A stretch of 64,000 nt of DNA from a virus (Duplodnaviria; Caudoviricetes). The notes beneath the pieces were generated by a model. That model saw only the letters and a list, made by a program, of their open reading frames with translations, ran no database searches and was not told where the DNA came from. Positions 3,588-54,081 of this stretch are shown piece after piece (the first letter of the stretch is position 1; every line of letters begins with the position of its first letter). The stretch lies in IMG/VR virus record IMGVR_UViG_3300025073_000989; one strand, written 5' to 3'. The position numbers were made by a program, and so were the translations under genes.

Positions 3588-3972
3588 CGTAGTTCCTCAA
3601 CTTGCAGAGTTTAATTACATCCACCAAACAGTTACCACCACCATCATAACCACTACACTTTCCACAAAAAACTAAACCGTTGTCTGGGTCTATCTTACTA
3701 AGCACAGTACTTCTAAGTAACTGGTTCTTTTTAATCTCTATTGCTTTACTTCTTAGAACAGAACTAGTTTTAGTTTCTATATCTTTTAGAGTCATTTTTA
3801 TTTTTTCTCCACAACTCAAACAAGCATATACCATATAATCAGGGTATTCGTCTATATTAATACCTTTACTAGTATTAACAAACTTAGATTTCTCTATATA
3901 TTCAAAAACCGTGTGCATTTGGTCAAGTACTATATCTAGTTTTCCACATTTATTACATTCTAGTTTAAACAT
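3577..3972 (-). CDS. Cys-rich zinc-ribbon protein, function unknown
   Basis: 131 aa with CNKC, CLSC, CGKC and further Cys. Overlaps the start of the downstream gene. Confidence 0.75.
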   Translation of the reverse strand: MFKLECNKCGKLDIVLDQMHTVFEYIEKSKFVNTSKGINIDEYPDYMVYACLSCGEKIKMTLKDIETKTSSVLRSKAIEIKKNQLLRSTVLSKIDPDNGLVFCGKCSGYDGGGNCLVDVIKLCKLRNYGVI

Positions 3973-3987
3973 TATACCTACCTAGTA

Positions 3988-28991: not shown

Positions 28992-31358
28992 TTAAATCTC
29001 CACTGGATTATTATTTATAGTCACATTAACTTTATCGCCTACCCTTATTAATTCTGGACAACCATTAATTGCTTCTCTAACACCAACCCCATCTATTAAA
29101 ACCTTGTATGCTATATGATTTCCTACATCCTGTATAACTGTGGCCTCTTTACTTATATTTTCAGTGGCCTTTATGTATACATTACCAACTATATTAGCAA
29201 GACCACTACCTTCACCAAGAACCCTAGGCCCTTCATTTACAGAAATGGTATAAGATCCTTGATCAGAGTAACTATAAGTAATATTATTTATTACTCCTCC
29301 AGCATAACCTCTGTCCCCTAATTTAGCAGTACAATTGGGTCCGCAAACATAAGTAACCTCAATACCCTCATCTTCTTCTATATACTCATATATAGTCTGC
29401 GCCATTTTTTTAATCTCATCTTCCTCAAGAGAAGCCATATTTATGTTAACAGATCTACTACCAGCATCCATATAAGTATATACTTCTTCTACCTCGGTAG
29501 CTTCTAGATCTTGTGTTGTGGTAGGATCACTATCTCTAAAGTTTACAGTCTGATCTATTACTTTATTTACTCCAGCATAAGCAACAGCCATTGGAGGGGG
29601 AGGATCATCCATAGTTATTGCTGATACCATAGCCTTAGTTTCTATTATTATTCTCCTTGCCCTGCCCTCCTTAGAACCATCATCATGTTCTATTATACCG
29701 TTAGGATCTGTAACAACAAGACAATCTGTATCGAGATCTACAACAGCATATACCTGGTCCACTAGAATAGCAGACTGGGAATTTAGTGGTAAAATTGCAC
29801 CTTTCCCCGTTATTAGATTTCTATAGGCATCTACGTTTATACTACAAAAACCAAGGTCTTTTTCTCCAGAACCTCCGAGTATTAAATTAGTATGCCAGGA
29901 ACTACCTGCTACTATTATAAAATCAACACCATTACCATCAACACCGGTTCCATATTCAGCAAAATCGTTTACATCAGAATTATTAGCAAAGCGTATATAT
30001 GGTTTCTTTCTAAGTAGATCTTGTGGATCCACTATATAGCCAACAACATAATGAACACCCTCAGTGAGAGCTACCGTAACTTCTTTTAGATTATTTGCAC
30101 TCACTAGAACATCCCTATCTTCAGGATTTCTACTAGCCAATCTATCCAAACCAATACCGACTTTGGGCTTACCAAAACAAACATCCAACATTAAACCTAC
30201 AACATAGACCTTAGATATTCTAGTAAAAGCATCCACAGTAGTATTTCTAATAGTCTCATATCGCAAAGCATCAGGAATCTTTACTACAACCCCTTTGGTG
30301 AGCTGTCCGTTACCATAAGTACCAGTAAATTCAGAATCTTCTAATTCAGTACCTAGCCCATCCATACAAGAAACATCAACACCGGAGTTCTGATCGAAAT
30401 CAGCATTATACATTCTTTTATACAGTTTACCTATCTGCGGTTTCTTAGTAGAATCAAATCTATCAGCCATTTCCAATGGCCCGGCATTTTCCCTCATCAC
30501 ATATTCAGGACTACCATCATTGTTTGGTCTAGATATCTCTATAGGAACTGAGCACTGTCTCTTGTATGAAACATTGGTTTCAGGAGTTACCCATTCTTCT
30601 GGCGGTTCTATGGTCCAGGCCCATCCTATTATTTTTTCAAAAGGACTTCTATCTACATTCATATCGTAAATTGTAGATATACCATCCTTATAGTCCGTAC
30701 TAGAAAAATGAGGATTTCTAAAAGTAATAGTAGCATGTCCAGAAAACATATCTTTGTTACAGTTACTTACCATACTGTGTGTATCCCACAAAACAGCACC
30801 ATTACCTTTAACTACCCCCTGGTCTATTGAATCCGATTGAAGTAAATCATACCACTCGCCCTGCTTCCTTAAAGGTAGAGGTTTTCTTCCAGTAATAAGA
30901 ACCGTGGTATCTTTATTATCAAAAGCTTTTGATGGTATTGTATGTAGTATGTATGGTGAAAAATTAGCATTTCTTTTACCTATCTCTACAAACTCTACTT
31001 TACCATCCTCATTTACTATTGGCTCCTTTAAATATGTAGTTGCATAGTTATTACCGATCTTACCAAACTCTTCTATCAGGGACAGCTTAAGTGTAGTTAT
31101 TGCATCAGCATGCTTTAAATCTATTCCTTCTAACGGCCCTCCGCCAGAAGTGTCATATTCCATGGGAATATTAAAAGTATTAAGTATAAACTCAGCAACG
31201 CTTCCAGGTACAGGATTTTTACCTCTAAAGGTCTCTATATCCCTCATAGAAAGATCGCCTTGTGATGGGTCAGCCAAATCAGCAGGCGAAGTATCACAAA
31301 ATGTAGGCCAGGCTTTAGGCCTATCTGCCTCTGTTCTTTCTTCTATAGCCTTTACCAT
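28992..31358 (-). CDS. Baseplate hub / Tal-like protein with C-terminal OB-like segment
   Basis: 788 aa immediately downstream of the tape measure gene; C-terminal GGVINNITYSYS...YTISV and YKVLIDG...IRVGDKVNV. Confidence 0.55.
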   Translation of the reverse strand: MVKAIEERTEADRPKAWPTFCDTSPADLADPSQGDLSMRDIETFRGKNPVPGSVAEFILNTFNIPMEYDTSGGGPLEGIDLKHADAITTLKLSLIEEFGKIGNNYATTYLKEPIVNEDGKVEFVEIGKRNANFSPYILHTIPSKAFDNKDTTVLITGRKPLPLRKQGEWYDLLQSDSIDQGVVKGNGAVLWDTHSMVSNCNKDMFSGHATITFRNPHFSSTDYKDGISTIYDMNVDRSPFEKIIGWAWTIEPPEEWVTPETNVSYKRQCSVPIEISRPNNDGSPEYVMRENAGPLEMADRFDSTKKPQIGKLYKRMYNADFDQNSGVDVSCMDGLGTELEDSEFTGTYGNGQLTKGVVVKIPDALRYETIRNTTVDAFTRISKVYVVGLMLDVCFGKPKVGIGLDRLASRNPEDRDVLVSANNLKEVTVALTEGVHYVVGYIVDPQDLLRKKPYIRFANNSDVNDFAEYGTGVDGNGVDFIIVAGSSWHTNLILGGSGEKDLGFCSINVDAYRNLITGKGAILPLNSQSAILVDQVYAVVDLDTDCLVVTDPNGIIEHDDGSKEGRARRIIIETKAMVSAITMDDPPPPMAVAYAGVNKVIDQTVNFRDSDPTTTQDLEATEVEEVYTYMDAGSRSVNINMASLEEDEIKKMAQTIYEYIEEDEGIEVTYVCGPNCTAKLGDRGYAGGVINNITYSYSDQGSYTISVNEGPRVLGEGSGLANIVGNVYIKATENISKEATVIQDVGNHIAYKVLIDGVGVREAINGCPELIRVGDKVNVTINNNPVEI

Positions 31359-31368: not shown

Positions 31369-34300
31369 TTAACCGAAATAAGGTCTACTTATTTGAGAGT
31401 GTATTTTTGTATTCATTACACCAATATCTCTCGTTAAAACATCTATTTTTTGATTACTAGTATTTATTTTAGCAATTAGTGGTGTTATGTTGTCATTAAT
31501 AATACTGGATATATTATTCTTATTTTCCATATTAATTTCACCAAACCTGTTATCTATATCTTCTTTGAGTGTAGACAAAATAGAACCTATATTATTATTG
31601 GAATTTATAATCTCTATGGCATCTGCATTATTGTTGGTTCTTTCATTTATATTTAAAACCTGTGATCTGACTTCCTCTAATATAGTATCAAATTTATTTA
31701 TCATATCAGCACCAACAGAATTATTTCCGGCGCCAGAAAAATCTTTAGGTATAGACGATACTGCGGTTTTAAACTCATCTATTGACAGCCTTAAATCACT
31801 AGTATCTAATTTTATTGAAGCTGGAGAGTCCACAGGTATAGAAGAAGGTATCCCTGTTACTGGAATTCCTTCTTCTGGAATACCTATAACTTTTACTTCT
31901 ATTTTATCCAAAGAAGACTCATCTATTTTTACTTTAACCCCCTCTGAAACTAAAGTTTTAAGTTGATTAAAACCAATTTCATCTACACCTATTTTTAATT
32001 TTAATATATCTTCAATTTTTTCAAGATTTTCAAATTCTACTTTTACTGTAGATTTACTATTATTAGTCGATATTGAATTTAGTATAGATTTTTGTAGTTC
32101 GGCAGTACCTCCAGAAGCTGGAGCATCTGGTACAACCACCTCACCCTCTTTTAATAAATAAGGGCCTGTATCCTTAATAAGACCACCATCATGCATTACT
32201 CGTGATTTTGGAAAGTTAAAAGAAACCCTACCACCAAGGGCTTTTTTGTCTGCATCCGAGCCTTGCCACCCAGTACTACCTGTACCGCGGTCATACCAAT
32301 CAACCTCACCCTTAGCACGCTTAAGTTCTTTTATAAGGCGTTTTATTTGATCTATATCACTTTCACCCGACCACGTTTTAGTACTACTTATACCTAACAG
32401 ATCTAGATTGTTTTTGAGATCAGTTGGTAATGCGACCGCAGCTTTTACTTTTTCTATTACAGGTACTAGTGCTTTAGTATACTCATCTTGTACATTATCT
32501 TCTTTGGTTGGATTAATGAATGACTGAAATCCAGCCTTATATCTTTCATATTCTTTTGACTTGATTAATTCAGAGTATGGAACTACATCTCCTTTATCAG
32601 GCATTTTAGTTATTATATATTCACCTAATTCTCCCCTTTTATATCCTACCCCAACCATACTTAATGATCTTCCTAAACCATCAGAGGATTTTATAGCCCC
32701 TGCTTGTTCAGGAGAAATGGCTTTTGTTGATGCTAAATAATTAGCTATGTTGTTTTCAAGTGAAACTCTTTCTGCTGCTTTATTTTGTTTGTACTCATTT
32801 AACGGATCTTTTACTAACTTAGGTTGTTTGTTACCTAATTTAGCAGAAGCAACAGCAGAATTTAACTCTTCCTTGGTTAGTAAGCCCTGTGCCATTTTTG
32901 CGCGAATTTGGCTAAACTCAAAATTATCAGCTTCAGAAAAGTACCTCATTTTATCTATAGGTACAGTTGTACTTGGGTCTATATTACGCAAAGTATCGTT
33001 TAGAGTCACACCTTCATCAAAACTGTGTTTATTCTTCTTAGCCTCCTCAATGAGTTGAGATGCTGTAGGAGCTTCCAGTTGCGCTTTTTTATATTCTTCG
33101 TCAGTCAGTCTCTGATTACCGTAAGTACCTAAATAACTATACTTATCATCTACAATACCGCCTGATGCAAAAAATACTGGGCCTCCCAAAGCCTTCTTTG
33201 TAAGTTTATTTTTAATTTTAAATAAACGTTGTTTCGCGGCCTCAGTAAGGTCCATAACTTTATACAGCGCTCTAGATAGGAAAGGACTTTCGGCCGCCTT
33301 GCTACCTGCTTTACTAGTTAATTCAGCAGCTTTAGCTTGAGCATCAGCCATACGCTGTTTAAAACTTTCGGCCAGACTACTTGCTTTAGTTCCTGAAAGT
33401 TCAGATAGCTTTTGTTTACCGAAACCGTAAGCTTGTTTAGCTAGATCTCCTACTTTAGTTCCTGAAATCCCAGAAATATGTTGTTTCGCGGCCTCAGTAA
33501 GGTCCATAGCTTTATACAGCGCTCTAGATAGGAAAGGACTTTCGGCAGCTTTATACAGCGCTCTAGATAGGAAAGGACTTTCGGCCGCCTTGCTACCTGC
33601 TTTACTAGTTAATTCAGCAGCTTTAGCTTGAGCATCAGATAAATACTGTTTCACGTTTTTAACTAGATCTGTACCGGAAAAACCAGAAATATGCTGTTTA
33701 ACAGCCTCAGCGGTGTCTCCAGTAACACCCATAGTTTTATTTAATAAATCATTAATTTTAGGCTTATTTGCACTGATATCACTAATAGTAGTTTTGGTTT
33801 TATCCATCACCCCAGTAACAATTGGTCTAGTTTTATCCATACCTTTATTTAAAAAGTCTGTAGTTATCTTTATTGCATCTGTAGTTTTGTATACCCCTTT
33901 CAAAACAGATTCCGCAAAATCACCAGACTTTACACTGTAATATGACTTCCTTAAACCTCCCCAGGCACTTGAAAGAGAAGACTTGCCGATATCTATAGCC
34001 GACCCGAATCCTTTCTTTATACCAGAACCAGCAACGGTTTTTAATTTATCATAAGCAGAAGGTATACCAAGAGCCTCTCGGTGTGCTGACTCAGCAATAT
34101 TAGTTTGGTACTTGTTAGCTTTGGCCTCCCTAAATCTAGCTGTGTAGGGCCTTCCTGTATCCGATGCTTCTTGTGCAGCTGTTCTAAGTTTAGTCAACTC
34201 CTCTGCCTGTTTTTCCATTAATGTTTTTGGACTTCTTGAGGCAATAGCCCCAGACAATAACTTACCAGACAACATTGGTCCTGCAACACTCCCTAACGTA

Positions 34301-37300
34301 CTAGTAAAACCTGTTTCCTCATAGTCTTTTTTTAATGCGTTGCCCATAGCTAAAATACTCTCTGAAGAAAAAGTACCTGCTATATTTTTACTAGTATCAA
34401 CTGCTTGTGAAAAAACAGCCTCTGGGACATTACCCAATCTCCAACCACTGGTGCCTTTTTGTTCATCTAACTTTAGTTTTCTTTTAGCCAGGCCCTCACC
34501 TGCGCTTTTAGCCATTGCTATAAAAGGCGCTCCTGAAAAAAACCTTAACGTTTCCGTAGCAAAATTAGTAGACCAATCCCAAGCCATTTTGGGATAATTC
34601 TTCAGTTTATTACCTAGCCCTTTGGTGTCTAGGTCTTTAATTTCGGAATGTCTTTCTATAACGCTTTTATGTGCGGCTTCGCTGTGTTCTATCATTTGAT
34701 CATACCAACTATTACCACTTGACCCTGAAAAAGCCATATCACTACCTGATTTTGCTATCTTATATGCTTCCTCCCTATCAAAAACTTTAGCTTTCTCGTT
34801 TTTAATTTTATCTTCACGTTCTTTTCTTATTCTCTCTATTTCCTGGTCTGTTTTATACTCCATAGCCACTTCTTCTCTGGATAAGCCGGATATTCTTTTA
34901 GCTTCTTCTTCAGAAGTACCAGTATCTGTTAAATACCTTATACCTGCCTGCTTAGCCATATCTTCTGAAAGTTTAGCTTTTTCGGCAGCAACATCTTTTG
35001 CTTTTTTGGCGGCTATTTCTTCAGTAGTAGAAGAATAGATTCTGGTTAATTCGTTTATATCTTGCTCAGATCTAGCTTTGTCTAAAACATTCGACATTTC
35101 TTTTAGATTATCTAAGCTGGATATTCTATAGGATTTATTGTAGTTTATATCCTCAAATTGTCCCTGATTACCTAACTGTTTAGCTATACCGTTGTCGTCA
35201 ACAAAACGAGCTGATTTATATTCTGGATTAACTTTTTTATTTTCTATTTGTAGTCTATTTTCCTCAATAGTTCTACTCCTTACTTCCTCCAGTCTGGCTC
35301 TCAATTCCTCATCAGTATATTTATTACCAACAATACCACCTTCCGCAAATCTCGGCACCTCGCCGGTACTGTTGATATGATCGAGAACAGCATAACCAAG
35401 CTTTCTAGCAGACTCTGTTTTAATTACATATTCACCATTACTTAAATAAGCTGAAATTTTATCGGCCTTTGGACCACCTTCACCAAAAATCCTTCCTCCA
35501 GAAGCTTTCTTTTCTACTTTATCTGGCTTTTTTAAAATACTTTCTATGTTCCTTAAATGATCAGCCGCTTCTTTTGCTGCATTTAAAAGCTGCTGCTGGG
35601 GACTTTCTTTTTGACCTACACCTAAGCTTTTTGAAAGTCTTGCGGCTATATCTTCAAGCTGCTTGTTACCAGAATTACCTAAAGCATCTATAACTGGAGC
35701 CAAAGAATCCTTAATCCCAAGAGTAATAGACCTAAGCTGGCCCATATCGCCTTTTGATAAAGCGTCTATATAAGAATTTAACTTTTCCTCATCCATACCA
35801 CCTAAAGCTTTATCTATAAGATCTCTAAACGAAGTTAAAGCCGAAACATCAGTACCTTCTCCCCCAAATGTTGCTAATCTTTGTATATTAGATATAGCCT
35901 CTTTAAATGGAGCAGCTATAGACTGAAAGTCTTCAAAACCTTGTTTTTTAAATTCGTACTGACGTTCTTCTTTTTGTTTTTGAGGAAGCAGTGCCATCCC
36001 CATCAAGGCCTCTACTTTAGGATTCAAAGCAGTACCGATTAAAGTCTGCATATAACCCGCTTGCTCAACCTCATATTTATTAGCAGAAGCTTTAATATTA
36101 GAACCTGATATATTATATTTAAAGCGCTCAAGTGGAGCTATATACTGCTTACCTAACAGATCAGACGAACCGTACTGGGCTTTCATGGTATCCATGAAAG
36201 TTTTTACCCCAGAAAGATTTTCAGTTATTCTTGTACTGGACACATCTTCCAGTACAATATTCATTCTCTGAAGAGCTCCGGAAACGTTTTCAATTACTTC
36301 TACCTGTCTACCTAATGCCGCAAAGGCATCCGTAGCAGCCCTTAACTTTATTGTATCTTGTTCAATTGCAGAGTCTAGTAAATTTATCTGATTTGTATTT
36401 TCTTCAATGTCTTGTTTATCAATATCCCTTTTAGCAATAAGTTCTGCTTTATTTCCTTCTTTGCTAACTATATCAGACTTAATAGTAGCTACAGTCTGTT
36501 GTAGTCGAATTAAAGTATCGATAGAGTTTTTATAACCTTCACCAAGATTAGAATAAGCGAATTGCTGAGCATTCATTTGTCTCTTATCCATGCGAGGAGT
36601 AAGCTCACCAGGGTAACCGAACAAATCTTTGTTGGTCATCGAACCTATATTATATTTCTTCTCTAACTCATCGCTTTGAAATCCTAAATAAGCTGATTTT
36701 TTATTTGAGAAGTTCTTTAATGCCTGTTCGGCAGCAATATAAGCAGGACGTAATTTCTCTTTACTATTATCAATTTCTTTTGAAGCTTTGGCGGCAGATT
36801 CAGCCAAACGGTCAAGTTCATCGGTTACTTGACCTAAACGGTCTTTTTCTATATCTGTTTTATCTGTCCTATTAGTAAGTTCTAGCTTCTCCTCTGTTAG
36901 TTTTTTCATAACAGACTCGATATTACTTTTTTCAGTTTGTTTTAGCTCTAATTTTTTAAATTCTTCCTCAAAAGTACCAGAAGTACCTTTCATTGAAAGA
37001 GCATTATTCATTAAATTTTTAAATGGATTTTGTATATTCTTAAATCCCTTCAAAAATGTTATAGGATTGGTAAAATCAAAGTCCTTAGAAAAAAGCTTAA
37101 AGTCCTTAAACGCACCTTTAACTTTATCCATAGGTCTTAGGAATAAATCATCAATACCCATATTATAATTTAATAATTTCTTGCCATGGTAACCACCAAG
37201 AAGTTGCTCTGGTGTCATGTCACTAAAACTTCTAATACCAAAATCTACTGTCTGTGGATTATATTTACCAGCCAACATACCACTGGCCTTAGAAGGCTTA

Positions 37301-40300
37301 CTCAACCACTGATAAGGATTTAACATACCAAGAGCAGAAGGCTTTCCGGCCTCAGACACCATTCTAGAAACCTCTTGTGCAGAAAAAATCTCATTCACTG
37401 CACGTTTTACTGCTTCGAGTTGCATTTTAAGCTCTTCAGCAAACTTTATTCTACTTAATTCTCTTTGTAACTTACTAGCCTCCTCAGACATTATTTCAAA
37501 TTCAGATACGAGGTTTTTCTTCATATCATCAATATTATCAGTTACGTTTTTAAACTCATTATCAGTATCCAGTACTAATGATTTTTTAATAGTCTCTACT
37601 GATTGTGTTGTAGTTTTACCTATATCATTAATTTGTTGTTCAAATATCTTTTGAGCAGCCTCTGGGTTTTGTTTTATAAGGTCTTTTATAAGCTTTGACT
37701 CCTCAGCGGCTTTATTTCTGTTAGTAGATACCTCAATATCACCTGCATTTTTTTCAGCCAAATATCCAGCAAAAGTAGCGCCTAATTCTGCCGCCATTAG
37801 CTTTGCTATCTCTGAAGAAGGATCTTGACTAACTGGTCCACCGGCTTTATATTTTCCAATTATACCACCACCAGCAAATCGTGGAATTTTACCAGTTGTA
37901 TTCATGTAATTTAGTCTATCAAGCCCTAACTTATCCACAGCAGAAGCCTTAAATATATATTCCCCAGCACTAGCCATAAGCGGAACTAAATCCGAGGTTG
38001 GGCCTCCTGGACCAAATACAGCCCCACCGCCTGCCATTTTAGGTGGAGTACTTTTTTCCAAAAGCTCAATGTACTTTTTGTATTCTTCTGGTAGAAAGTC
38101 AGAGACTTTTGGTTTAATAGCCAATGGATCGTCTATTATACCGCCACCTGCCATTTTAGGAGGAACAGTAAGCGCTGAATCATCGCTGTCTCCAAACAAC
38201 ATGTACCCAAGTTGAGCAGCAAGCATTGCCCAACTCAGCCCAGGAATAAACCTTGACAAGCCTTTTAACCCTACCTTACCTACTAGTTTAGATAAAGTCC
38301 CAGAAACAGCCCCAGTAGCTTTACCTACAGCACCTATACTGCCTATTTTCTTTGCAGCATTATATACACCTAGTCCAGTTAAACCACTACCAACTGTAGA
38401 TAGTATTGGAGATCTTTTTACATAACCACTTACATCGTTATACTTAGATCTTAGCCAACTAGGAACTTCGCCATATTTATTCATATAGTCTAAATTCTTT
38501 ATTCCTAATTTTTTAGTTTTATCGGCATTTAGTATATACTCACCATTACTGGCCATAAGGTTAACTTTATCAGAAGTAGGTCCACCAGGACCATGTATAT
38601 ACCCTCCTGTGGCTTTTCCTTCAGGCTTATCTTTATTTAAACCTTTTATTGCATCTAGTATAGCACTCAATCTGTCTACCTGCTCTGGTCCAACGTCCTG
38701 ATCTTTTATTACATCTGTTTGTTCTTTTATGGCAGCTATAGTCTCATCTGATACTCCGTATTTTTCCTTTTCTGACCCAACATCCTTCATAAAAGCCTCA
38801 CCGGCTCTTCTTACCTTAAGCATATCCATGGTACCAACATCCTCACCACGCGCTTTTTTAGCTAAAACCTCCTCCATTGTTTTTTCAAAAGTTGATGCCG
38901 AGGCTGGCATTTCAGTATCAGATGCTTTACTTAGTAGCTTTAATCCAACATAAGTGGAAACCGCTGCTACTCCCATTTTCTTTATATTTGCTTCTGAAAA
39001 ACCCAAAGCCTGCGCAAACTGAGTCGAACCAGAAGTAATTAGTGATAACGACTGAAGCACGCCATATATGTCTGCTTTTTTCTGAGCTTCGGCACGTTTG
39101 GATTCTAGGGCTGATGTATCTTGACCGGCCGTCTTTGCTACACTTATTTGTTCATCCAGAGCATCTATTATTTTATTAGATCCACTTTTGCTTAAAGTAG
39201 AATAAATAGAACTAGCAGCAGCAGTTTTTGCTATATTTTTAGAAGAAATAAATGTGTCCTCATTATTCTCTGCCTGAAGATCTGCTATACGCTTTACGTC
39301 TTTATCGAAAGAAGGCTGTCCTTCTACTTTTGCCAAACCAAACCACTTTCTTTCTGGAGGAAGAGCGGATCTAAGTTCAGTTATAAAATCTTTATAGTTT
39401 ACACCACTATAAGCCCTTTGAGACATTTCTTCGGGCGTAAAATTATTCTTACCAATAGCATAATTCCAATCTACCTTACTAATAGCTTTTTTTATACCTA
39501 CTTCATCCACCAACTGTTTAGATAGTACATCTAAAGCTTTATTAGCTGAGGCCATTTTATCAAAATCACCGGAAGCTGCCGCCTCATCTCTAATTCCAGC
39601 TACTCTTTCCAGAGCCTCCTTGGTTCTGCCTGTTTTACCAAAACTTAAACTAAACCTATCGGCCCAACTACTCAAAAGACTTTCTACTATTTCTGTATCA
39701 TCGGTTTGGCCTTCTATAAGCCTATCTAATCTCTCAACAGTAGCAGCAGTATTATCTGCAACCTTACTAGTCTCTATCTTTAATTCTGCAACACCGGTAT
39801 CACCTGTTCTAGCCACAACCTCAGTATATTTTTTCATATCTTCTGGGCTTAGAACAGAACCAAAGCCTTTAGATACATTCCTTATACTCTCTAAAGCCAC
39901 CTTAGCCTTTTCTGCAGAAAAAACATTTTCTGATAAACCTGTTCTTTTTAAGTTTAATTCTCTCAAAGAAGAAGCTGCTTTCTCAAAGTTTGAATTATCT
40001 CTTAGGGCTCTTTGTTGAGCAGTTAAATTGTTATAACTTTCAGCCCCTAAATCTACATTAGCCAATTCGGAAAAATGACCTTTTAATAAACCACCAGTAT
40101 CAACCATTAATGCTTGTCTTGTTTTTTCTATAGCTACATTTTCTTTAAGTGCCCTAGCTCCAGCTTCAAACTCTTTAGTAAGATCAGTTAATATAGCTCT
40201 ATACTGAAAAACAACTTGGTTATTTTTCAGTATTTCCTGCAATCTTGTTAGTTCTTCAAAAAGACCAGTAGATAAGCCCTCTTTGTTATCTAAACCTTCA

Positions 40301-43300
40301 GCTTTTAGTTTTACCAACTCCTCTAAAGATCTTCTATAATCAGACATGGGCTTTTCATAAAACTCCTTAAAGTCCTTTGCCCAACTTTGCTGAAACGGAG
40401 AAGAACCAAAACCACTTTTAGGTGTAAAACCTTTATCCCCTTGTATAATACTTGTAGTAGCTATATCACTAAAAAATCTTTCGCCCAAATTAAAGTCTCT
40501 TTTAAAATCTTTGGCTGAAATACCACGCAAACCAGCACCAGCACCAGCAACAAACTCATTTAATGCATCTATACGGTCGGATAGGTCTTGTTCTATTGCT
40601 TTTTGTGGAAATATGGAATCAGCCATTTTCTGCATAGATTTATCAAATGGCCGCTCTTCTACCTGCAAAGTTTTGGTATTAAAATAAGTAGCTACCCACT
40701 CAAAAACACCATCAGTAGTCTCTTTAAGTCTAACTATAGCCTGATTACCGGCAATATTATATTTATCCGCAGCGCCATCAATAAAAGTAACCAGATCATT
40801 ACTTAGTAGTTTACCCTCTCTCTTAGAAACGCCTGATGTTTCCAGACGAGCAGTAGTTAATATAGAAGTAGCATCAAAAGAGGAAGCCATTTCAGGAAAA
40901 ACCCTCTTCATTACATCTGCACCTAAAACATCCTGCCACTTAATCTTACCTTTAGTTTCGTTGAGGTTAAATCTAGGCTCAACATCCAGCATTAACTGGT
41001 AACCTTTCTTTAATTCAGGATTATTAAATATATTAGATATCTCTTTAGGATTTAATCCGTCTGTAGATATATTAGATAATGTCTTTTTGAAATCAGAGTA
41101 GGTCTCATTAAAGTTTTTCTTAATTGTGTCTAGCTGACCTTGATACTTAATTATATCTTTATCAAAAGCTGTAGATAGTGGTGTTTTACTACGAGCACTT
41201 ATTAATTCATTTAGTCTAGTAGTTAGTACCTTCATAGACTTAGCTGGAGTAACTTCAATACCCTTAGCAAGTAGTTCACCAAAAACAGGGGCCTCTTTTA
41301 TAAGTTCCCTTAGTTCATACTTCCATTTTTCAGGGCCCTCTGTTTGAGTTAACGCCTCTATATGCTTTGAGGCTACTCCTATTTCCACCTTTGCCATATC
41401 CTTAAGTTTTACCTTTTCTAAGACCTTAAGGTAGCCTTTTAGATTATCTTTGGTGCTCAAAATAGCATTACCCAATTTATCATATCCAGCTATTAATCCT
41501 AAATTTGAAGTAGCTAAAGAGTTAGTAGTAGAGCTTACCTCTTTTTGAAAATTAGCAAGAGCAATAAGAGGACTAACATAAGTACCTAGTTCCTGTTTTC
41601 TAGACTTTTGATTAGGATCTCTCGATGCTTGTATATTTTTAAGTTTACTTGATAAGGTATCATAATTAGTAAGCAGTCCTCTAATAGAAGAAAGTTCAGA
41701 TTCTTGCGCTCTTCTAGTTCCATATACAGACTTCTCATAATCTTGAGATGAAATCAACAAACCCCTATACTTATTATTTAGCCCATTAAAGGCATACCCA
41801 AGACCAATAACCGTAGCGATTAACGGACTTATAGATTTAACTAAATCCGAATTTTTAGAGGCAAAAGCCTCTACAAACTTTGAAGCCCGCTCACCACCAA
41901 ATTCTCCTGCCTTCTTAGCAGCATACCCTGTAACTTCAGCACCTACAGCCGCCCCAGTAGCTAATGCTCCTACACCTTTTAGAACTGGGCCAGGTGAACC
42001 AGCAGTAGCCAGTGCGGATAGATGATCTAGTTTATCACTAAAACTCTCTACTGCCCCACCAGCAGAGGCCAACCCTTTAGCCCCCGTACCTACCACAGTA
42101 CCTAGCCACTTATTATAACTTTGCCCTGTATTACTTAGTAGAAATAATGTTTTTCCTAAAGATGAGTTAAAGTCTTTTAGTGTTTTTCCTTGTAAAGCCT
42201 CATCTACATCTCTTTTTAGTGTCTTAAGCCCAAGGTCTTGGCCTGGACCCTTACCTAGTACTTCAAACTTGGCGTTTGTTATTTCTCTATCAAAATTTCC
42301 TCCAAACTCTTTAAAAATAGAACTTGCTCCAGCAAGAAGATCTGTTAACTTGCCTATTACGTACCCGCCTTTAGACATGTAAGCAAAAAACAAAGTTAAA
42401 GAAGTAAGGGCAACTTTTACTGGACCAGGAATAGCGGAAATTGACTCTAACAGAAAACGCATACCCTTTAATCCAGTCTTAAAAACAGGAAGAGCCACTT
42501 TACCAAAAGCTATTTGTAGCTCTACAGCCGCTGCTTTGGTTTGCTCTATTTGTTTTTGATAAGTATTCATAATTTCAAGATTACGTCTTTCAGCCGAACC
42601 TTTTGAATTTACGCTATCTCTAACGGCCCTAAGTACATCATCCCACTTATCCATCATAACAATTAAAGAGTTATATTGACGAGTACCGCCTATAGCTTGA
42701 GCAATATTTAGTTTTTGAGCACTAGTCAAAGAATTCCACTTACTGGCTAAATCACCTAGTACATCAAAACCCTTTCTTAGTTCTCCAGACGGCGTCATTG
42801 TAGATATGCCCATTTTAGCTAATTCTTCTGGTCCTTTTTCAGCAGATAATCTTCTCAAAATAAAGCGCATCGAAGTACCAACCTCATTACCAGTCTGACG
42901 AGTAGTAGACCCTACAGCCGCAACAATACCATTTAATTGATCAAAATCAACACCAGCAACTTTAGCAGCAGAGGCGGATTTTTTAATAGCATTTGCCATA
43001 TCACCAGCAGTAACAGCAGTTTTAGCCTCAACTTCACTCCAAGCATCCATGAAACGCATCGAGCTTTCACCTTCTCTACCAAAGATGCTCATAGCAGCGG
43101 TCAAAGCCTCCGTAGCATCTTTTGCGTTAAGGGTAGTAACGTTGGCTGCCAACGTAGAAGTTTTAGTTCTATCGATAATTTCTGCTTGTGATAAACCTTG
43201 CTGAGCAAAAATTTGCATGGATTTTAAAACATCTTTAATACTTATACCATATTTTTTAGAAAATTTAATAGCAGATTCCTGCAAGGAGTCAAAGTTAGCT

Positions 43301-46300
43301 TCTAATGGACTCATTACCATTTTAATCCGAGCCATAGCTGTCTCTACATCTCCCATAGTATCTACGCTTTGGGCAAGTTTAGCGGTACCTCCATAAACTA
43401 AGGTAGAAGCAGCACCCCACTTAGCGGCCCTTACAATAGCACCACGAAACCCTTTCTGAGTACCCTGCATCATAGCCGTCATATCACGCTGTTTATCGTG
43501 AAAAACACCTACTTTTTTCCCAGTCTCGTCTATTGTTTCGCCATACTTATAAAAATCAGTTATTATATTTTTAAGTACATTACCGGTTTCATCAAATATC
43601 TTAGTGGTGTAAGACATCCTTTCTCCAACCTTGGCGCCGCCCTCTTCTTCAGTTTTACCATAGTATTCCTTAAGTTTTTGAATATTCATGGTATGCATGG
43701 CCTGCTGCTGAGCAGGATCAATCCATTTTGGAACCTTAACGGTACCAGTAGTACCATAAGAAGACGGGTTTGGTTCTATGCCTGCTGGTAAATACGCGGA
43801 TTCAACACTCTTAAGGTACTTTATTATATTTTCTATATTCTTTGATTTATCTGGCTCATCTGTAGAAATATTAAATTTCTTGTATTTTTCTAAAGAAGCC
43901 CTCAGCCTAGTTACTCTATCACCCATTCCTTGAAAGTCCCAAGCTTTGGCGTAAGACGAGCCCATTCTATCTACAAAGTCTTTTTTCTCCCTATCATTAA
44001 GAATATCTATTTTTTCTTTATTAACAGAAGTTAATTCATCTAAAATAGCCCTAGTTTTCTTAGCCGGCGCCATCCTTTCTCCAGACTCAGCATCAGATAT
44101 TATACTCTTAAATATATCGCCAAGCTGGTCATCTTCGCCTAACGGTCCTTGGGCCTGCCTAATCAACTCAGCTGGAGGTATAAAAACTCCAGCCGACTCT
44201 GCTAATTTAGAGTCTAGATGTTGTTTATTAACTGTATATATATCACTAGGTTTACCCATACCCCTTTTAACAAATTCCTGCATTCTAGAAATAGAATCTT
44301 CATATTTAGCATATGCCATAGGGGCCATACCTACACCCCTTTCTTCCTCTAAAGCAATCAACTCTTTCCTAGCGGCAGCTATTTTATTTAGGTAATACTC
44401 ACCCAAAGCCAGCCTATAAGCCTTCCATGCCTTTGTTATCATATTACCTGGAAGACCCTGTTGGTTATCAGTCCTTTTAGCTAAATCGGTAGCTTCTTTA
44501 GTAGCATCTATGAACGTTTGATAATCTGGTCCTTCGGAAACAGCCCTTTTTAGTAGATCGGCAATAGTATTAGGGACGGATTCAGTTACGTCATTAAACT
44601 CCACACCTAGGTCTTTCTGACTTAAAATAGCTTGATTTTGTAATTCTCTTAGATTTTTAGAAGTATCATCTAATAAATTACCGCCCCTATGTATTTTTGG
44701 AGGTATCCTGTAATCACTAGGAGTGGCATCAGACAGAGACGAACCTTTAGTAAACCCAGGAATAATTCTAGATTTAGTACTGTTTATATCATCTTCTATT
44801 TCTCTAAATGCTTTTTTATTATGTCTTTTAGTATATAGCTGTTGAGCTTTACTCATGAAAGAAGAAAGTTCTTCATCAGATAATTCAACTCTTTTGGATT
44901 GGGCGCTTTTTAGTTCCTCAAAGGAACCTGTCTTAGCGTAAACAGCGTCTGGTCCTAACTCTTCCCTAGCGACCTTTATGGCCTCTATATCTTTTTTATA
45001 ACGCTCTGTGTCTTTTTTAAACTTAACTACGGTTTTCTCGGAATCGCTGCCTTTACCCGCAGCAGAGTAAAACCAACCCTCAGATTTAATATCAGGAGAA
45101 GCTTCATCTCCCAGAGCCTCTATATAAAAATTAACTTGCGAAGCAGTATCTTCAAGTTTTTTTCTAAGGTAAGTATAGTTGCTTTTTCCAGAAATATGTT
45201 TAATTATATCATCAAAATCATTACCAACAACGGATATAACTTCACTAAGTTTATCTATAAAATTTGAACTAGATGTTTTTATATCTACTAATTCGGTTAC
45301 TAAGTTGTCTGATTTTTTAAGCATATCAATATGCCCAGTAATTTCTCCAACATCAGTAACTTTACTTACCAACCTCTCTGCTTCGTAGCCTTTACTTTTA
45401 TATTCTCTTTGAACCTTTTCATGCAGACCAGTACCAACAACAGCAGTAGTCCTCAATGCTGGACTTTCTGATTTTGTACCCAACATAGTTGCTTTTATAG
45501 CCTCTATTTGTGACCTCACGCGATCTTCTTCAGTGTTAATAATGTCATTGTATTTTCCGCCAGAAGATATACCACTAGCTCTAAAAACTTTACCAAAATC
45601 AGTACCAGAAAGTTCGTTTGAGTATCCAGATAAAGCACTAGCCGTACGTTCTAAGTCATCTAAGGTTCCTACAAGAGATGGAGTACCGGCCTTAGTATAT
45701 TCTATATTATCCTTTAGTTGGATAAAAGAAAGATTATCGGCTATACTTGCTATGTGCACAGATATAGGAGAACCTTCATATTTAAAAGGCAATGGTTTAT
45801 TACCATCAAAATCATCAGAAGGAGCACCTGTATCTTTACCGCCACCAGAACCCCCACCTGAACCACCGGAACTTCCAAAAGTAGACATAAAGTCACTTTC
45901 CTCGGTCCTATGAGCTTTAGTTGGTTTTCTATGTCTATCATAGCGCTTAAAATCGTTTACGTCAGCAACCCTTAAATCATTAGGCGTAAAAACACTCTTT
46001 ACTACATCAGGAGCAGACCTTTTTAGTACAGAAAGAATCTGATCTACTTGATGTAATTTAGTAACATCTTTCAAACTATCATTAAATGCTTTTTCCTTTT
46101 CTTCTGCTGTATTACCACTAGAAATATTAAGATCCTTTAGCCCCTCAGAAAATGACATCTCAACGTCTTTTCTAACAGACTTAACCCCAGTAATATCTAG
46201 CATCTTATTAAAAGTATCTTCATTGTAAAATAGTTCTTTATGGCTCTCAGATAAATTACCAGAAGAAAGACGAGTAAATAATTCCTCAGCCGACTGGTTT

Positions 46301-49300
46301 AAAAATGTTTCTGGATTACCGGCACTCCTAACCAACCTTATAATCTCATCCTGCTCTTTAACTAGTCGCCTAGACGAACTGTTTACCATATCAGCATAGG
46401 CGCCACCAGCTGTACTAGCACTCTGTATATCACCAAGCGCCGATTCTATTTCCGCAACTGTAGCTTGAAGTCCTTTTTTAGAAGAATCACTACCAGAACT
46501 AGCTCTAGTAAACCCATGCAAAGGCATATATGCATCAGAAAAATATTTCTTTATAGGATCTGCATTTCCAGACTTTAGCTTTTCCCAAGCATTGCTTTTA
46601 TAGGTATCAAAATCTACTGGTTTTCCTTTTATAGTAGGATTAATATCATACTCCTTCTTTATACCCTTATTTATAGCGTTTGCAATATCCTTACTAAGGT
46701 CACTTATAAAGCCACTAAACCCCTCTTTAGAGATTAAATCTTCTAGTAATGCCTTTCTACCAGTAGGTATTTTACCACTATACCCTTTAATACTATATAG
46801 ATTTTCAGCCTCAGTTTTTAATTCACCAGTAGACATAGCACCGAAACGCATCTTTAAAGAGGCTTCGTTTTGTTCCATAAACTCTTTCAAGCCCTTTAAA
46901 TCATCTTCTGTATTTACTCTACTTATAAAAGCACTAGAATCCCCTTTTGCAAAGGTTAATGCTCTTATAATATCCCTAGAAACTGTACCTTCACCTGCGT
47001 GCTTAACGTCCATTCCTTTTTGAATGCTAAAACGTAGTAATTCATTCATTTGGGTATTTCTTTCTCTAGATAGTTTACCCTCCAAAGTAGTATCATCAGC
47101 CCCCAATTGTCCTTTACCTAAGGCATTCTGAGATTCAAACAATCTAGTAACACGATAAAGTGCTTCTGTTTCTGGACCTGTATGTACTTTAAATAGATTT
47201 GCATCAATAGCAGATTTAAATTTTGAACCATAATCAGGATCTGTTCTTTCTAGGAATGGCTTTTCTAAAAATCCGGCTTCTGGGAACTTCTTAGACATAG
47301 CCTTATACATAAAAGCTAGTGGATATTCCCCTTGTGATGGCTGCATAGCTTCGTTTGTAAAATAATCCCTAAAAACTCCGGCAGTAGTATCAACATCTTT
47401 AGACAATAAGTCAAAGTGCTTCTTGATATCTTTTCTGGCATCAGAAGTTTTAGCTGTATGTACCTCTATTTCATCGCCGTCAAAATCTAACTTTTGTTGA
47501 TGCGCAATATATTTAGGAAGTATTTCGGATATGGCTCCATTTAGTTTATTGATAAGTTCAGTCAGTCGTTGTATCTCTACCTGATTACCTTCTTCATCAT
47601 TGGACCTAAGCGTCTCTCTTTTTTCCACAGCAGAAGATCTGATTGCCTTAACTTCCCCTAGAGCCTGATCAAATTTAGCGAAATCCATTTCAGGCATACC
47701 AGGAACAGTTAAAGCATGGGCGCCCATCTCACCGCTTAATAGTTTGGCTTTATATGGCTGAATAGATGAAGTTCCAGTAAAAGGAAAACGAACGCTTTCC
47801 ACATAAGGAACCAATTCATCGTTGATATATTTATTTATCTTATCGTCACCTGGTTTAGCTTTAGCTAAGGTCTCAGAGTATTTTAATAAACTATGCAGAG
47901 TTTCTTTTTTTTCTCTTTGATTACCTACATAAATATCCTCACCTTCGTTTGTATATCTTCTGGTAAACCTTACAGATAGCTTTTTAGCCATATCTTCAGG
48001 GATACCCAACTCGTCTTGTTTTAGTACAGGCACCCCGGCCTTTTTATAAGATTCTACTTTTAAAGCATGCTCACTCCCTATGGCAGCAAAACTCTTTGAT
48101 AATGATGGTAATTTCTCAATTCCTGATATAGAAAGATCACCGTAAGTCGATGATATATCTTGTAAATTGTTACTAAAGGAACTAAACTCATCGGTTTTAT
48201 CTACAACAGCATTTATGGCTTTTGCCATTATAGATGGAATTCTTCTAGTAAACAAAGAACCAGCAACTCCACCAGATTTTCCTAAAACTGCTTTAGCTAA
48301 ATCACTATAATAATCCTCTTTTGCTTGATTAAGAAGTTTCATAGCCCTTTCTAATTTAGTATCATTAGATACATCTATATTAAACGTTTTTACAATATCT
48401 TGTAAAGAGTCATCAGTACTATCCCCGGCTTTGAGAGTAGCCGATATAGCTGTAGCATAGGCCCTAGTACCTTGAGATTCATAGTTCTTTTTAGCACTAT
48501 TTCTAGCTCTATCTTCATTCTTGCTAGACTTGGCAATAGCATCGTACAACTTAAACAACTCGTCATCAGCTGTTACTGGTATTTTGCTATCTTTTGCTAA
48601 AGTGTAAGCTTTATTTGTTATTGCTTTTTTAATATCATCGGTAGAAATATCAGTATCTGATCCTGCAAGAAGATTTTCAACATCTTTAGAGTAGTCTATT
48701 ATTTGTTGTAATCTTCTTGTAATTTTGTCAGGAGCTTTAGCTCCAGCAATAAGAGGATCATCATAACTCTTTCTTATTAAAGGTCCTGGTACATAAAAAG
48801 GTTCTTTTCTACCAGACTTAACACTTTTTAAGTCATTATCTGGGCCACCTGATGGTATATTTACACTAAAAGCCGATGGAAATTTTTCAGTATCTAATAA
48901 AGTATTATGAAGGCTCTGCGTACCAGCAGAATCGATTAAAAAGCTACCCAAATGACCAGACCATTGCTTTATATCTTTAAGTTCAACAGTTTTCATGTCG
49001 TCCAAAGCTTGTTGGACATGTTGTTTGTTTTTACCCATTCCTATAAGTAAGGCCTTAACGTATTCAAACTGTTCCCTAGAAGAAAGATCAGCTTGGTTTT
49101 TAATCTCGTCCATCAATGCAGATTTTTCACCAAAAACAGAAGCGTACGAAGCGTATGCCGGTAAATTTAATTTAATACCTTTAAGGCCTTTTTCTATATC
49201 AGAAGCCTTCCACTCAGCGAAGGCGTGTGGCTCCTGAATAACTTGGAGAAATTTAGAACCTACTAGACTTTTTACCTTATTTCCTAATTCGTCCTCAACA

Positions 49301-52300
49301 TCTACATAAAAATTAGAAAGCCTTTCAATTTCAGCTGCTTTTTTGGCCATATCTTCACTATAACCAGATTTTTTTAGATCATCAGTTATAGCCTTTTTAC
49401 TTTTATCTATACCCTTAAAACCAAGAGTACTACTGGCCTTAGTAATATCACCGCCCGGTAATAGCCTTTTATAGGCTTCTGGACTAAATTCGGTAGGTAA
49501 TGTAGTCGTACCACCTTTACCAGTACCTGCTAAATTGTTTGTAATTAACTCCATTACTTCAGTCTGTAAGCCGCGCTTTCCTGCACCATACGAGCTTATA
49601 CGTACATCTATTGGGACTTTTTTAGTAGTACCACCTCCAGTAACATCTTTATATAACTTCTGTAAGTCTTCTATGTTTTCTACATTTACTCCATACAACT
49701 TATTTATCTGTTTAGAAAATTCCTCATACAAAGTGTTTTCAAACTTTATCTCTTTTTTGTCGCTAACTATTCCTTTACTAGGATCCTTAAAAATATCTAA
49801 CATGAATTTATTACCAGACTTTTTTAAATCCTCTGACAAAACTTTAAAAGTATTTAATAACTCAGGATCAGAAAAAGTAGAAACCTCTCTGTCAAGTAAT
49901 TCCGAGCCCATTTCTCCCATGGTTTTAGGTACATTTGCAAACCCCAAACCTGTTCCTGGGGTAATACTAACACCTTTAGAACCATACCTAGTAGTAAATT
50001 TTCTTCCAAAGTGATTTACAAATACCTCTGCTAATTCTGCAGCCTGTACTTCTACGTCCTTTGCTCTAACTACAGCTATTTTCTTTTTAACGTCCTCGAT
50101 AAGTGCCTGATCAGCTCTACCCTCATATTTACCTGTAGTTTTTCCAAATATCTTTTGGTACTCAGCACTAGCTGACTTTATTCCTCCGGTCAATGCTTTT
50201 AGTATTTTTGGTTCAATATCATCTATGGCATGAGCACTATCCCCTAAACCCTCTATCGACATTAATCCTTTTGCACTAGGTAATACTAGTGTTTTTACGA
50301 TAGAGGTTAGAGCGTCTGCCAGCTTTCCACCTATCATTATTTGATCTTCAAAAGTACCAGCAGTGTGCCTGAGCTCAGTAGTAACATTAAAACCATAACC
50401 TTGTTTACCAAAAGCACCTGACTGTATTAAATCGCGTTCTCTAGTAGTTCTCAGTTGAGGGTATTCAGTGGTTATTCCGCCAGCAAACCTGCTACTTCCA
50501 GGAAACTTATCCGCCCATTTTTCTATATCATCCATCGATGATGACATAGCATTAGTTACATTTGTTATATTTCTACCGGCCTGCTGAAACTGTCCGAACG
50601 GGGCTTGTTCTCTTAAACTATCGGAATATAGCCTAAGCGAATGTCCTTTAAGTCCTTTACTAAGGAACTTTGTACCCTCAGTTAAAGGCTCTTCATCCGT
50701 ACCTGTAACAGCACCGCCTCTATAGTATGTGTATCTACTAGCCTGAGATTCAGGTAAACCAAGACTAGACAGATATTTAGCATTTAGACCTTTTAGTTGT
50801 GACGGTTTGTCTACTATACCTGCCTTATTAAGCGCATTATTGACTGCAGTCATTTCATCAAGACGCACATTAGTTGAGCGATAAGCGTTTTTAACTTCAT
50901 CAGGACCTAATTGTTTTACATCTTTTAAAAAGTCAGAGGTCATTATATCGAAATCAACAACTTTTTGTTGGTGAAATCCCCTTCTTGGTCTTCCAGGCTC
51001 AATAACTGGAACCAGCTGCTCTACTTGTGCTATAGCCTGTTCGAACTCTCTAATGTTTTTATCGTGTTGAGGATTTTTAGCTAATCTAGAAACAAGACTT
51101 TCAAACTGTTTATTGTTTGTGCCAATGTTAGCATTTAATACCTTATCTATAGTATCATAGAAACTTTCAAAACGTACACTATCTAAAGTCTTTACTGCAT
51201 CAGTAGTACTAACACCAAACTTTTTTTGCATAGAGGAAAAAAACTTAGGCAAATCATCTAAACTACTATTATCTAAAAAAGCATAAACAGAGTCACTAAC
51301 TTTTTCTATTTCTTGTTTAAGTTCTGTTGGAGATAAATTTGATTTATCAATAGCTGTTTTTGAAATAACAGCCTCTTTATACAACTTTTTTATATCTACA
51401 GCACCGGTTGCCTTAGCTTTGGTTAATAATTCACTAGATAATTGTTTGGGAACATCTGATTCTGGGTGTAATAGAGCCGGAACTATCTTAGACGCCAAAC
51501 TATTTATATCATTATCATCTAAACTTCCACTTCTTTTACTTATCTCACCTAATAATTTTTCATAACCAGAATCATATACAGCCCTTCTTGATAAGGCCCT
51601 ATCACTGCCATGAACGGTTTTTACCGTAGCAACGCCGCGCTCAGTTAATCTAGCTGCGGGTAAAGATACTACACGCATCAAACCTTTGGCTTGTAATTCT
51701 CTTTCTACGGTCTCTTTTCCAACAGTGGCTGTAAATATATCATCCAATGCCCCTAGTATATCTTTATTCTCCCTAATAGTATCAGGTTGTTTTTGTGCTT
51801 TAATTAGTTTTTGAATTAACTCCTGACTTAAACCTAAATTTTTTATATCTGGCTTAGACGCATGCTTTAACCAATCTGATATTTTCTCTAAAGCAACATC
51901 GGAGCCACTAAGATGCATATAATCAGAAGAACGCTTTCTTATGTAATCTTTTATTAGACCCTCACCACTACCGATAGCTCCAGTACTTCTTATTGCATCC
52001 GTGTTGATCATCCTAACAGACCACTGCCTAGCAGTAGTTGGATCACCAACTTGTTTAAATTTGTCGTCCACCAAAGACCAGCCCTTAGCTAGCTGCTGAC
52101 TCAAAGTAGTAACTATGTTTTTTGACATATTACTAAATGTTTTATTTAAAAACTCTACGTTATCTCTAACATACTTAAAGTCATCACTATCGGAAGTTAC
52201 CGAGCTGGCTTTTCTAATTCTATCAGAATTAATATCAGTCTTGCCTGGACCTATTACGCCTGATGGGTAGTGCCCTATTTTATATGTACTTAATTTTCTT

Positions 52301-54081: not shown

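Follow-up and report, generated by a model that had tools for sequence, protein, structure and literature searches.

A giant tape measure protein with a predicted two-barrel RNA polymerase and a nuclease domain in an uncultured jumbo phage

The Caudoviricetes record IMGVR_UViG_3300025073_000989, a metagenome-derived virus contig of 175,247 bp in IMG/VR with an estimated completeness of 66%, holds a single open reading frame (ORF) of 7,570 codons in which a tape measure protein (TMP) is fused to a predicted single-chain, cell-type two-barrel DNA-dependent RNA polymerase (RNAP) and to a nuclease domain. The window analyzed here is a 64,000-nt stretch of this record, and unless stated otherwise nucleotide positions refer to it. 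Our reading, to which we give a probability of about 0.7, is that the TMP carries both enzymes as cargo, injected into the cell for host-independent early transcription; it draws on sequence profiles, on structural models, and on analogy. The identification of aa ~1000-2590 as a polymerase, and of the N-terminal 40% of the TMP as enzymatic cargo, share this value as parts of the whole explanation. A tail-delivered virion polymerase had been put forward in the original prediction, and the fold and profile evidence for an RNAP-TMP fusion supports it. The accompanying remark that no characterized fusion of this kind was known, made there subject to a search, is not supported, since gp96 of Thermus phage P23-45, a 5,002-aa tape measure with an active RNAP at aa 327-1124 (DFDGD at 779-783), is already a characterized virion polymerase (Chaban et al. 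2024, PMC10770324). This precedent removes most of the claimed novelty. The concept of a TMP-fused virion RNAP has thus been known since 2024, and the protein described here is apparently a convergent variant to which a nuclease has been added.

The polymerase module displays eight motifs, the β-type ones preceding the β′-type ones (Table 1), all in the order originally proposed and with the metal-binding DFDGD at exactly the nucleotides claimed for it. After the β′ barrel come a bridge-helix-like segment, KVHTGPETEALYR, and then a QKGMDVKHAG segment; the corresponding patterns KxHTGP..Y..R..E and QKGxDxKHxG are conserved in the family and paralleled in a free RNAP described below. We aligned sets of 33 and 42 homologous sequences sharing only 24-47% identity. 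The invariant residues of the 33-sequence set include FEDQ (1244-1247), G1359, K1361, T1364, K1369, and G1370, together with D2199, D2201, G2202, and D2203, and DFDGD is invariant in the set of 42. The sole direct trace of a polymerase in Pfam is a sub-threshold match of Rpb1_2 to the DFDGD segment (E 0.0076). Searches of PDB sequences with phmmer and hmmsearch returned only non-significant matches at DFDGD, with the profile matches landing on NADFDGD, and a spurious coiled-coil match (KIF21A) on a helical insert.

Such extremely low similarity to known polymerases, with Pfam below threshold and nothing from phmmer against the PDB, could suggest that what remains is a dead relic, without catalysis and recruited into the ruler for structure or spacing, and the large helical insert in the β′ barrel points the same way. 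However, the metal triad, both lysines, FEDQ, and the bridge-helix-like motifs are strictly invariant down to 24% identity, which would be unexpected without catalysis, and we consider a dead relic very improbable.

Structural modeling strengthens the assignment. An AlphaFold2 model of aa 1190-2385, which spans both barrels and was built on the 33-sequence family alignment, has a predicted local distance difference test score (pLDDT) of 75 and a predicted template modeling score (pTM) of 0.62, while a second model, covering aa 1910-2580, has a pLDDT of 78 and a pTM of 0.75. When the two-barrel model was submitted to Foldseek, nearly all of the top 50 matches were RNAP β or β′ chains; the list for the second model was swamped by helical proteins. 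Superposed with VIA-align, the β barrel (model residues 1-432) matches Rpb2 and bacterial or plastid β subunits with Z scores of 14-15 over ~180 residues and a root-mean-square deviation (rmsd) of 3-5 Å, the Rpb2 regions involved (740-1058 or 785-1103) being those of the hybrid-binding double-psi β-barrel. It scores Z ≥ 8 in 641 of the 964 chains compared, and among the 50 matches listed all are Rpb2 or β. For the β′ barrel, 48,161 PDB representative chains were searched with no Foldseek prefilter, and the top matches are RNAP largest subunits with Z scores of 10-12. These include human Pol I (Z 12.2, 266 residues), Drosophila Rpb1 (Z 12.1), Sulfolobus A′ (Z 12.1, rmsd 2.8 Å, 20% identity), and Mycobacterium tuberculosis β′ (313 residues aligned), together with Pol II, III, IV, and V and the polymerases of vaccinia virus, African swine fever virus, and, as non-virion RNAPs, phages AR9 and phiKZ. 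Designed and VCP-type double-psi barrels superpose on it with an rmsd of 2.0-2.2 Å. In the same search, the alignments with Rpb1 reach through the bridge-helix region (model residues to 556-617). The models built on family alignments match both catalytic barrels, in agreement with the predicted RNAP core in which the β-type barrel precedes the β′-type one.

A second polymerase links this module to a family of stand-alone enzymes. A back-translated D[FY]DGD pattern has a second in-frame site in two related records, within a free-standing protein of 1,085-1,178 aa that displays the motifs K-I-T-N-L-x-A-N-K-G-V, ERFPCLGF, and LDFDGD and matches Pfam Rpb2_6 and Rpb1_2 just below threshold. Its family comprises at least 361 clusters, and the family profile finds bacterial β in the PDB with an E value of 9e-5. 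Using hhalign, we compared the alignment of these free polymerases with three alignments of the TMP-borne module: the β half (probability 99.2%, E 1.1e-19 over 412 columns), the β′ barrel (E 5.8e-5, revealing a ~70-residue insert in the TMP-borne copy), and the segment N-terminal to the first barrel (E 6.5e-6). Because all three match, the module spans about aa 1000-2590; the motifs do lie within the originally proposed aa ~1150-2400, but the module is longer. On these profile matches, the TMP-borne module is a paralogue of the free single-chain β-β′ polymerase.

The same phage encodes such a free enzyme, which the earlier account, correct about the TMP-fused RNAP, had missed. Neither the free polymerase nor its syntenic neighbors were found in the IMG/VR record itself; they fall in the part missing from it. 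Synteny in relatives predicted a position ~41-48 kb beyond the left end of the record, and a leftward walk along overlapping metagenome contigs (99.99-100% nucleotide identity, both to the record and among themselves) reached the gene on a groundwater contig (Table 1). Its product has LDFDGD, the two-lysine motif, and all the other motifs, and the gene lies on the strand opposite to the tape measure gene, inside a long run of small early-type genes. In P23-45, the pre-early genes include gp64, a free polymerase paralogous to gp96 (PMC10770324), and with a free paralogue in the same phage, this pairing of a virion and a non-virion polymerase recurs here, probably by an independent route. TMP-fused and free polymerase genes also co-occur in two relatives (G001 and G003). 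Three more pairs of matches to the two families share the same longest contig sizes (307,814, 311,571, and 325,297 bp), so that each pair probably lies on one contig. Neither the TMP-borne polymerase region nor the free polymerase has a tblastn match in 50,697 cultured-phage records.

The fusion is not confined to one record. A word-indexed search limited to giant proteins found 82 clusters of 4,500-8,000 aa that share aa 1150-2450, with E values down to 1e-270 and on contigs of up to 325 kb. An exhaustive phmmer search of 1.84 billion representatives gave 113 matches, all of them giant proteins or fragments and none a cellular RNAP. In IMG/VR, the TMP-RNAP family accounts for 44 loci. At least 95 giant ORFs, drawn from independent assemblies (JGI, ENA, Logan, and NCBI), share the architecture, which is collinear in all family members examined; polymerase and tape measure are thus found in the same ORF across metagenomes. 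Literature searches returned no paper describing this family. Since the record is a metagenome-derived contig, one might suspect an assembly chimera, or a missed stop or frameshift, joining a polymerase gene to a tape measure gene. The collinearity across independent assemblies and sources excludes a chimeric join, the junction regions are conserved, and a near-identical contig from another sample has the same gene. We therefore rejected misassembly and give a chimera practically no credence.

The cargo described originally consisted of the polymerase, which stands, but a nuclease domain that follows it had been overlooked. This domain is of the PD-(D/E)xK type, with G-x3-H, E, G-h-x-D (GHID, 2916-2919), D-I-K (2933-2935), and Q-x3-Y (QVNFY, 2982-2986) as invariant columns of the family alignment. 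Its profile matches Sulfolobus Cas4 SSO0001 (PDB 4ic1) with an E value of 1.4e-5, phrog_1706 matches the region with an E value of 4.5e-4, and 7 of 25 members show a weak match to PDDEXK_1. Motifs I-III and Q-x3-Y are those of Cas4/RecB nucleases. In contrast to Cas4, for which four Fe-S cysteines are typical, the domain lacks these cysteines and is embedded in a tape measure; Cas4 sensu stricto was rejected, there being no cysteine anywhere in the protein, and the domain is better described as a RecB-like nuclease. Roughly one-sixth of the homologues are without it. Some family members have extra domains: an RNase_T/DEDD exonuclease near the N terminus, an SLT lytic transglycosylase, or PT-TG (P0061, aa 285-418; P0074, aa 549-646; also P0041 and P0030). 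Because some homologues lack the nuclease and others have a DEDD exonuclease, the N-terminal half looks like a variable enzyme cassette, and the range of extra domains suggests that the cargo is modular.

Behind the cargo lies a recognizable tape measure. The fusion to a TP901-type core that had been predicted is borne out by a PhageMin_Tail domain with a highly significant E value (Table 1). Residues 2500-5100 match 15 PHROG families, 13 of them tape-measure families (best E 1.5e-70), and in tblastn searches of cultured phages the core shows 26-31% identity with TMPs annotated in siphophages of Bacillus, Lactococcus, and Staphylococcus. A hydrophobic segment lies near aa 4080-4099. The C-terminal repeats likewise match PHROG tape-measure families. 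They include a ~50-aa motif with three copies, at aa 5164, 5357, and 6200 (G-P/E-GGP-T/K-S/A-D ... SNGEY ... P-R-F-A-GGG), whose representative form (GPGGPTSD...SNGEY...PRFAGGG; aa 5164-5420 and 6200-6260) matches the C-terminal parts of these families, and ESPFLSRALYK is locally triplicated at aa 6834-6941 (33259-33582).

The genomic slot is consistent with this identity. The giant frame, which re-reading confirmed as one ORF, starts with TTG, with a strong Shine-Dalgarno sequence (AAGGAGG) 9 nt upstream, and like almost all genes of the window is on the minus strand. It is placed in the tape-measure slot by the tube-like ORF upstream, and the ORFs beyond the 788-aa ORF downstream encode large proteins that carry Ig-like, laminin-G, SPRY, or F5/8-C domains, as is usual in the distal tail and fibers. 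PHROG and Pfam gave almost nothing on neighboring ORFs, and no sheath gene was recognized in the genomic context. Together, the core domain, the similarity to annotated tape measures, and the tail gene neighbors make the tape-measure identity and slot sound. With 0.15 nm for each residue, a tail measured by the whole chain would be ~1.1 µm long and one measured by aa 3400-7570 alone ~0.63 µm; by comparison, the tail of P23-45 measures 800 nm for 5,002 residues (Chaban et al. 2024, PMC10770324), a ratio that fits the whole-chain figure.

Table 1. Predicted features of the giant tape measure protein, its neighboring ORFs, and the free polymerase of the same phage. Coordinates are those of the window except for the free polymerase
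Feature	Residues (aa)	Coordinates (nt)	Strand	Basis or remark
Tape measure protein with predicted N-terminal enzyme cargo		31369..54081	−	Single open frame, 7,570 codons
N-terminal region	1-999	51085..54081	−	aa 1 to ~600 rich in Lys, Glu, and Ala; aa ~600-1000 conserved in family
Predicted single-chain two-barrel RNA polymerase module	about 1000-2590	46312..51084	−	Homologous to free β-β′ RNAP of phage lineage
Predicted β/Rpb2-type double-psi barrel (hybrid-binding region)	1190-1621	49219..50514	−	AlphaFold2 model, VIA-align, invariant columns
TFEDQ	1243-1247			
GRKFTTRYGSKG	1359-1370			Two conserved Lys, K1361 and K1369
PIDVRISSYGAGKRG	1490-1504			
VGSKFLQVI	1607-1615			
Predicted β′/Rpb1-type double-psi barrel	1934-2530	46492..48282	−	AlphaFold2 model, VIA-align, DFDGD
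GKSGGVAGSLFTRR	1934-1947			
LGIPEDMA	2025-2032			
VRFPFTG	2097-2103			
DFDGD, metal-binding	2199-2203	47473-47487		
PD-(D/E)xK nuclease domain, Cas4/RecB-type	2815-3050	44932..45639	−	Family alignment (A3), PDB profile
Tape-measure core	about 3409-5000	39082..43857	−	PHROG tape-measure families
PhageMin_Tail (PF10145)	3601-3799	42685-43281	−	Pfam E 7.6e-30
C-terminal tape-measure extension	5100-7570	31372..38784	−	Motif copies and triplication
478-aa ORF, probable tail tube protein		56333..57769	−	Upstream; only a lead, from protein-atlas feature similarity to Phage_tube_2 clusters (score 0.94)
Two small ORFs		54155-55180 and 55218-55979		Between tube-like ORF and giant gene; usual tail-chaperone position
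788-aa ORF		28992..31358	−	Downstream; distal tail and fiber module with the ORFs after it
Free polymerase, same phage	1,102 aa	L083:11616-14924	+	Groundwater contig k127_116098, ~44 kb beyond the left end of the record

The chain of 7,570 residues contains no cysteine. The same is true of 73 of 95 giant homologues, the frequency across the family being 5.6e-5, whereas cysteine makes up 1.58% of residues both in the other ORFs of the genome and in the free polymerase family; the phage's own free polymerase has 16. At 1.58%, a stretch of 1,600 aa should contain ~25 cysteines; it would contain none with a probability of ~1e-11. P23-45 gp96 and two ordinary 3,000-aa tape measures also have none, so that cysteine avoidance is a trait general to the tape measures checked, perhaps a little-noted rule for TMPs at large, and the idea that depletion is peculiar to this protein was rejected. 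What matters is that the polymerase and nuclease modules share it. This lends independent support, at the level of sequence, to the view that the enzymes share the fate of the tape measure, being stored in the tail lumen and passing through an oxidizing compartment, and it argues against their acting as ordinary cytoplasmic proteins.

These findings bear on whether the polymerase stays with the tail at all. Many TMPs and head proteins undergo processing, and the N-terminal half could be cleaved off before or during assembly, leaving the polymerase outside the tail as a late intracellular enzyme or as separate capsid cargo, as in crAss-like phages or phiKZ. Besides the commonness of processing, the tail of >1 µm implied by a 7,570-aa ruler would favor cleavage, as would the variable linkers that separate cargo from TMP core and the homologues without the nuclease. 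Against it stand the cysteine-free composition of the polymerase module, like that of true TMP sequence and unlike that of the cytoplasmic paralogue, the conservation of the fusion in at least 95 ORFs, and a Pfam scan in which no protease site or domain was identified. Moreover, gp96 is present full-length in virions (PMC10770324). On balance we hold cleavage to be decidedly unlikely.

The explanation we prefer, delivery of the enzymes by the tape measure itself, would proceed as follows. By analogy with gp96, the full-length protein would be built into the tail lumen and expelled ahead of the DNA at infection, whereupon the ruler with its hydrophobic part would form or line a conduit across the envelope. 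The polymerase module would reach the cytoplasm and transcribe the pre-early genes, those that enter first, without need of the host polymerase, before the free paralogous polymerase takes over; the nuclease would probably attack host DNA or process DNA ends. We infer that the protein is present in the virion, ejected, and catalytically active, and likewise how the two polymerases divide their labor and what the nuclease does. In gp96, the polymerase transcribes and binds the pre-early genes (PMC10770324).

A delivered and active polymerase might instead have a mainly mechanical job, with gene expression secondary: tethered transcription would pull in the genome of roughly 270 kb. The genome is indeed very large (related contigs reach 325 kb, and the record holds 175 kb at 66% completeness), and because the polymerase is covalently tied to a conduit-forming tape measure, any transcription would reel in DNA. 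Transcription pulls the genome into the cell in T7 and N4. The sequence does not separate this role from expression, and the two are non-exclusive, but the presence of a free paralogue points to a cascade of transcription, in keeping with the expression role. As the main function, we judge a mechanical one unlikely.

Several observations weigh against a tail-delivered polymerase as a whole. With neither model did Foldseek return a match at E ≤ 0.001, those of the two-barrel model being weak (E 0.07-0.5). The β′ barrel has an unusual helical insert of ~70 residues, and as a result helical bundles are interleaved among its polymerase matches at Z 9-11; the β′ assignment therefore rests on the consistency of the polymerase matches and not on a separation in Z. 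The free polymerase was not found in a third relative (G002), estimated to be 89% complete, and a k-mer search for a repeated promoter-like motif gave no candidate promoter, only tandem-repeat arrays unrelated to the finding. Finally, it is physically difficult for a polymerase of 1,600 residues to pass along a tail tube in its folded state; for gp96, its authors invoke a flat, clamp-less shape to account for tail passage (PMC10770324).

A bolder scenario would tie these strands together, although the odds are clearly against its holding in full. TMP-injected RNAP fusions may have evolved at least twice, with groundwater jumbo phages of roughly 270-325 kb duplicating their own β-β′ polymerase into the TMP, stripping it of all cysteines for a probably unfolded passage through a tail of maybe ~1 µm, and adding a RecB-type nuclease (in some, a DEDD exonuclease). 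Such a protein would enter the cell as a multi-enzyme polyprotein for takeover, carrying out transcription, helping to reel in the DNA, and attacking that of the host.

N-terminal to the polymerase, aa 1 to about 600 are probably helical, and a protein-atlas search with aa 640-1010 gave no usable match. The phage itself is an uncultured, mesophilic jumbo phage from groundwater with a low GC content (35%) and a genome of roughly 270 kb; contigs of it are present in groundwater metagenome samples (PRJNA292723). Beyond the left end of the record, the early-type cluster also encodes an anti-Pycsar Apyc1-like metallo-β-lactamase, a TROVE (Ro60-like) protein, an RtcB RNA ligase, a radical-SAM protein, a dCMP deaminase, pentapeptide-repeat proteins, and GATase/COOH-NH2 ligase genes (coordinates within the cluster: L078:13573-14346, L080:12744-14075, L083:16350-17531, and L078:11162-11968). 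Upstream in the record is a large terminase gene with an intein that carries a LAGLIDADG domain (L004:7618-10674, +), and the tail genes include an ORF for a free-standing LAGLIDADG homing endonuclease (57908-58726, −). A PIN-PhoH fusion (L003:14194-15474, +) and a hybrid histidine kinase with a receiver domain (HATPase_c and Response_reg; L003:15563-16771, +) are also present. Very large fiber-like proteins are encoded downstream of the tail module (3-3587 and 3988-9795, both −; L006:662-8947); one measures 1,935 aa, and another, of 2,761 aa, has laminin-G and F5/8 type C domains. Outside the window, the record has three arrays of tandem repeats close to its left end (G000:C1 4355-4400, 8196-8375, and 9914-9990; periods of 15/30 bp and 17 bp), which may represent iterons or an origin. 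A tRNA scan of seven loci covering the record outside the window found none.

If the polymerase is active and delivered, TMP-fused virion polymerases would not be peculiar to one genus of Thermus phages and would represent a recurrent route to host-independent early transcription in about a hundred clusters of uncultured jumbo phages. Being much closer to cellular β/β′ than gp96 is, the polymerase would offer a second, independent system in which to ask how such enzymes are stored and pass through the tail tube. With a cysteine-free copy beside a cysteine-containing paralogue, the genome would also provide a natural experiment in what constrains the sequences of translocated enzymes. The added nuclease suggests that several enzymes can be delivered by one tape measure, a point that bears on early host takeover, on anti-defense, and on how the many giant ORFs labeled "tape measure" in viromes are annotated.

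Comparison with known systems sets this protein apart in several directions. With TMPs of the TP901-1 type it shares the PhageMin_Tail core, the hydrophobic segment, a long helical cysteine-free chain, and a position between tail tube/chaperone and distal tail genes, but it is 7-8 times longer than is typical, and its first ~3,400 residues are not ruler-like. Particle-borne polymerases injected for host-independent early transcription are known from N4, whose virion RNAP is a T7-type single-subunit enzyme, and from crAss-like phage phi14:2 (gp66) and phiKZ/AR9, which, like the single-chain YonO of SPbeta, have two-barrel catalytic cores. The concept is the same, but those virion polymerases are separate gene products, capsid cargo or multisubunit, and not part of the tail ruler. 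Cellular RNAPs share the β-then-β′ order, the ED, K..K, RxP, and NADFDGD-type motifs, and the best structural matches for both barrels; among the top 50 matches, where cellular β/β′ dominate, there is no P23-45 polymerase, QDE-1, or phi14:2 gp66. Unlike them, the module is one chain inside a structural protein and extremely diverged, and no zinc-binding cysteines or clamp motifs were recognized in it. The β-β′ phage polymerase behind it may belong to the RNAP-encoding 'mReC' Caudovirales, described in a paper that does not mention tape measures (Weinheimer & Aylward 2020, PMC7481178).

The closest parallel in organization is gp96 of P23-45 (Oshimavirus; also P74-26, G20c, and TSP4). In both systems a giant cysteine-free TMP has a two-barrel RNAP with DFDGD N-terminal to the ruler, the early genes at another place in the genome include one for a free paralogous RNAP, and no accessory subunits like those of the host RNAP are apparent. 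In contrast to gp96, the module here starts at ~aa 1000 instead of 327, measures ~1,600 instead of 800 aa, and is followed by a nuclease domain, while gp96 has a metallopeptidase, for which Pfam finds no match in the present protein. The phages themselves differ too, P23-45 being an 84-kb thermophile. In hhalign, the TMP-borne β-half alignment has a probability of 0.9% against gp96 aa 1-1200, that is, no relationship; the free polymerase alignment meets gp96 in only 76 columns at DFDGD and has no match to gp64; and phmmer and hmmsearch against PDB sequences return no P23-45 polymerase chain. With no detectable profile homology beyond the universal catalytic loop, membership in the gp96 family was rejected. 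This absence of similarity suggests an independent, convergent fusion from a cell-type β-β′ phage polymerase: by analogy, the TMP-RNAP described here would work like gp96 without belonging to its family, and the fusion of tape measure and polymerase probably arose independently in the two lineages.

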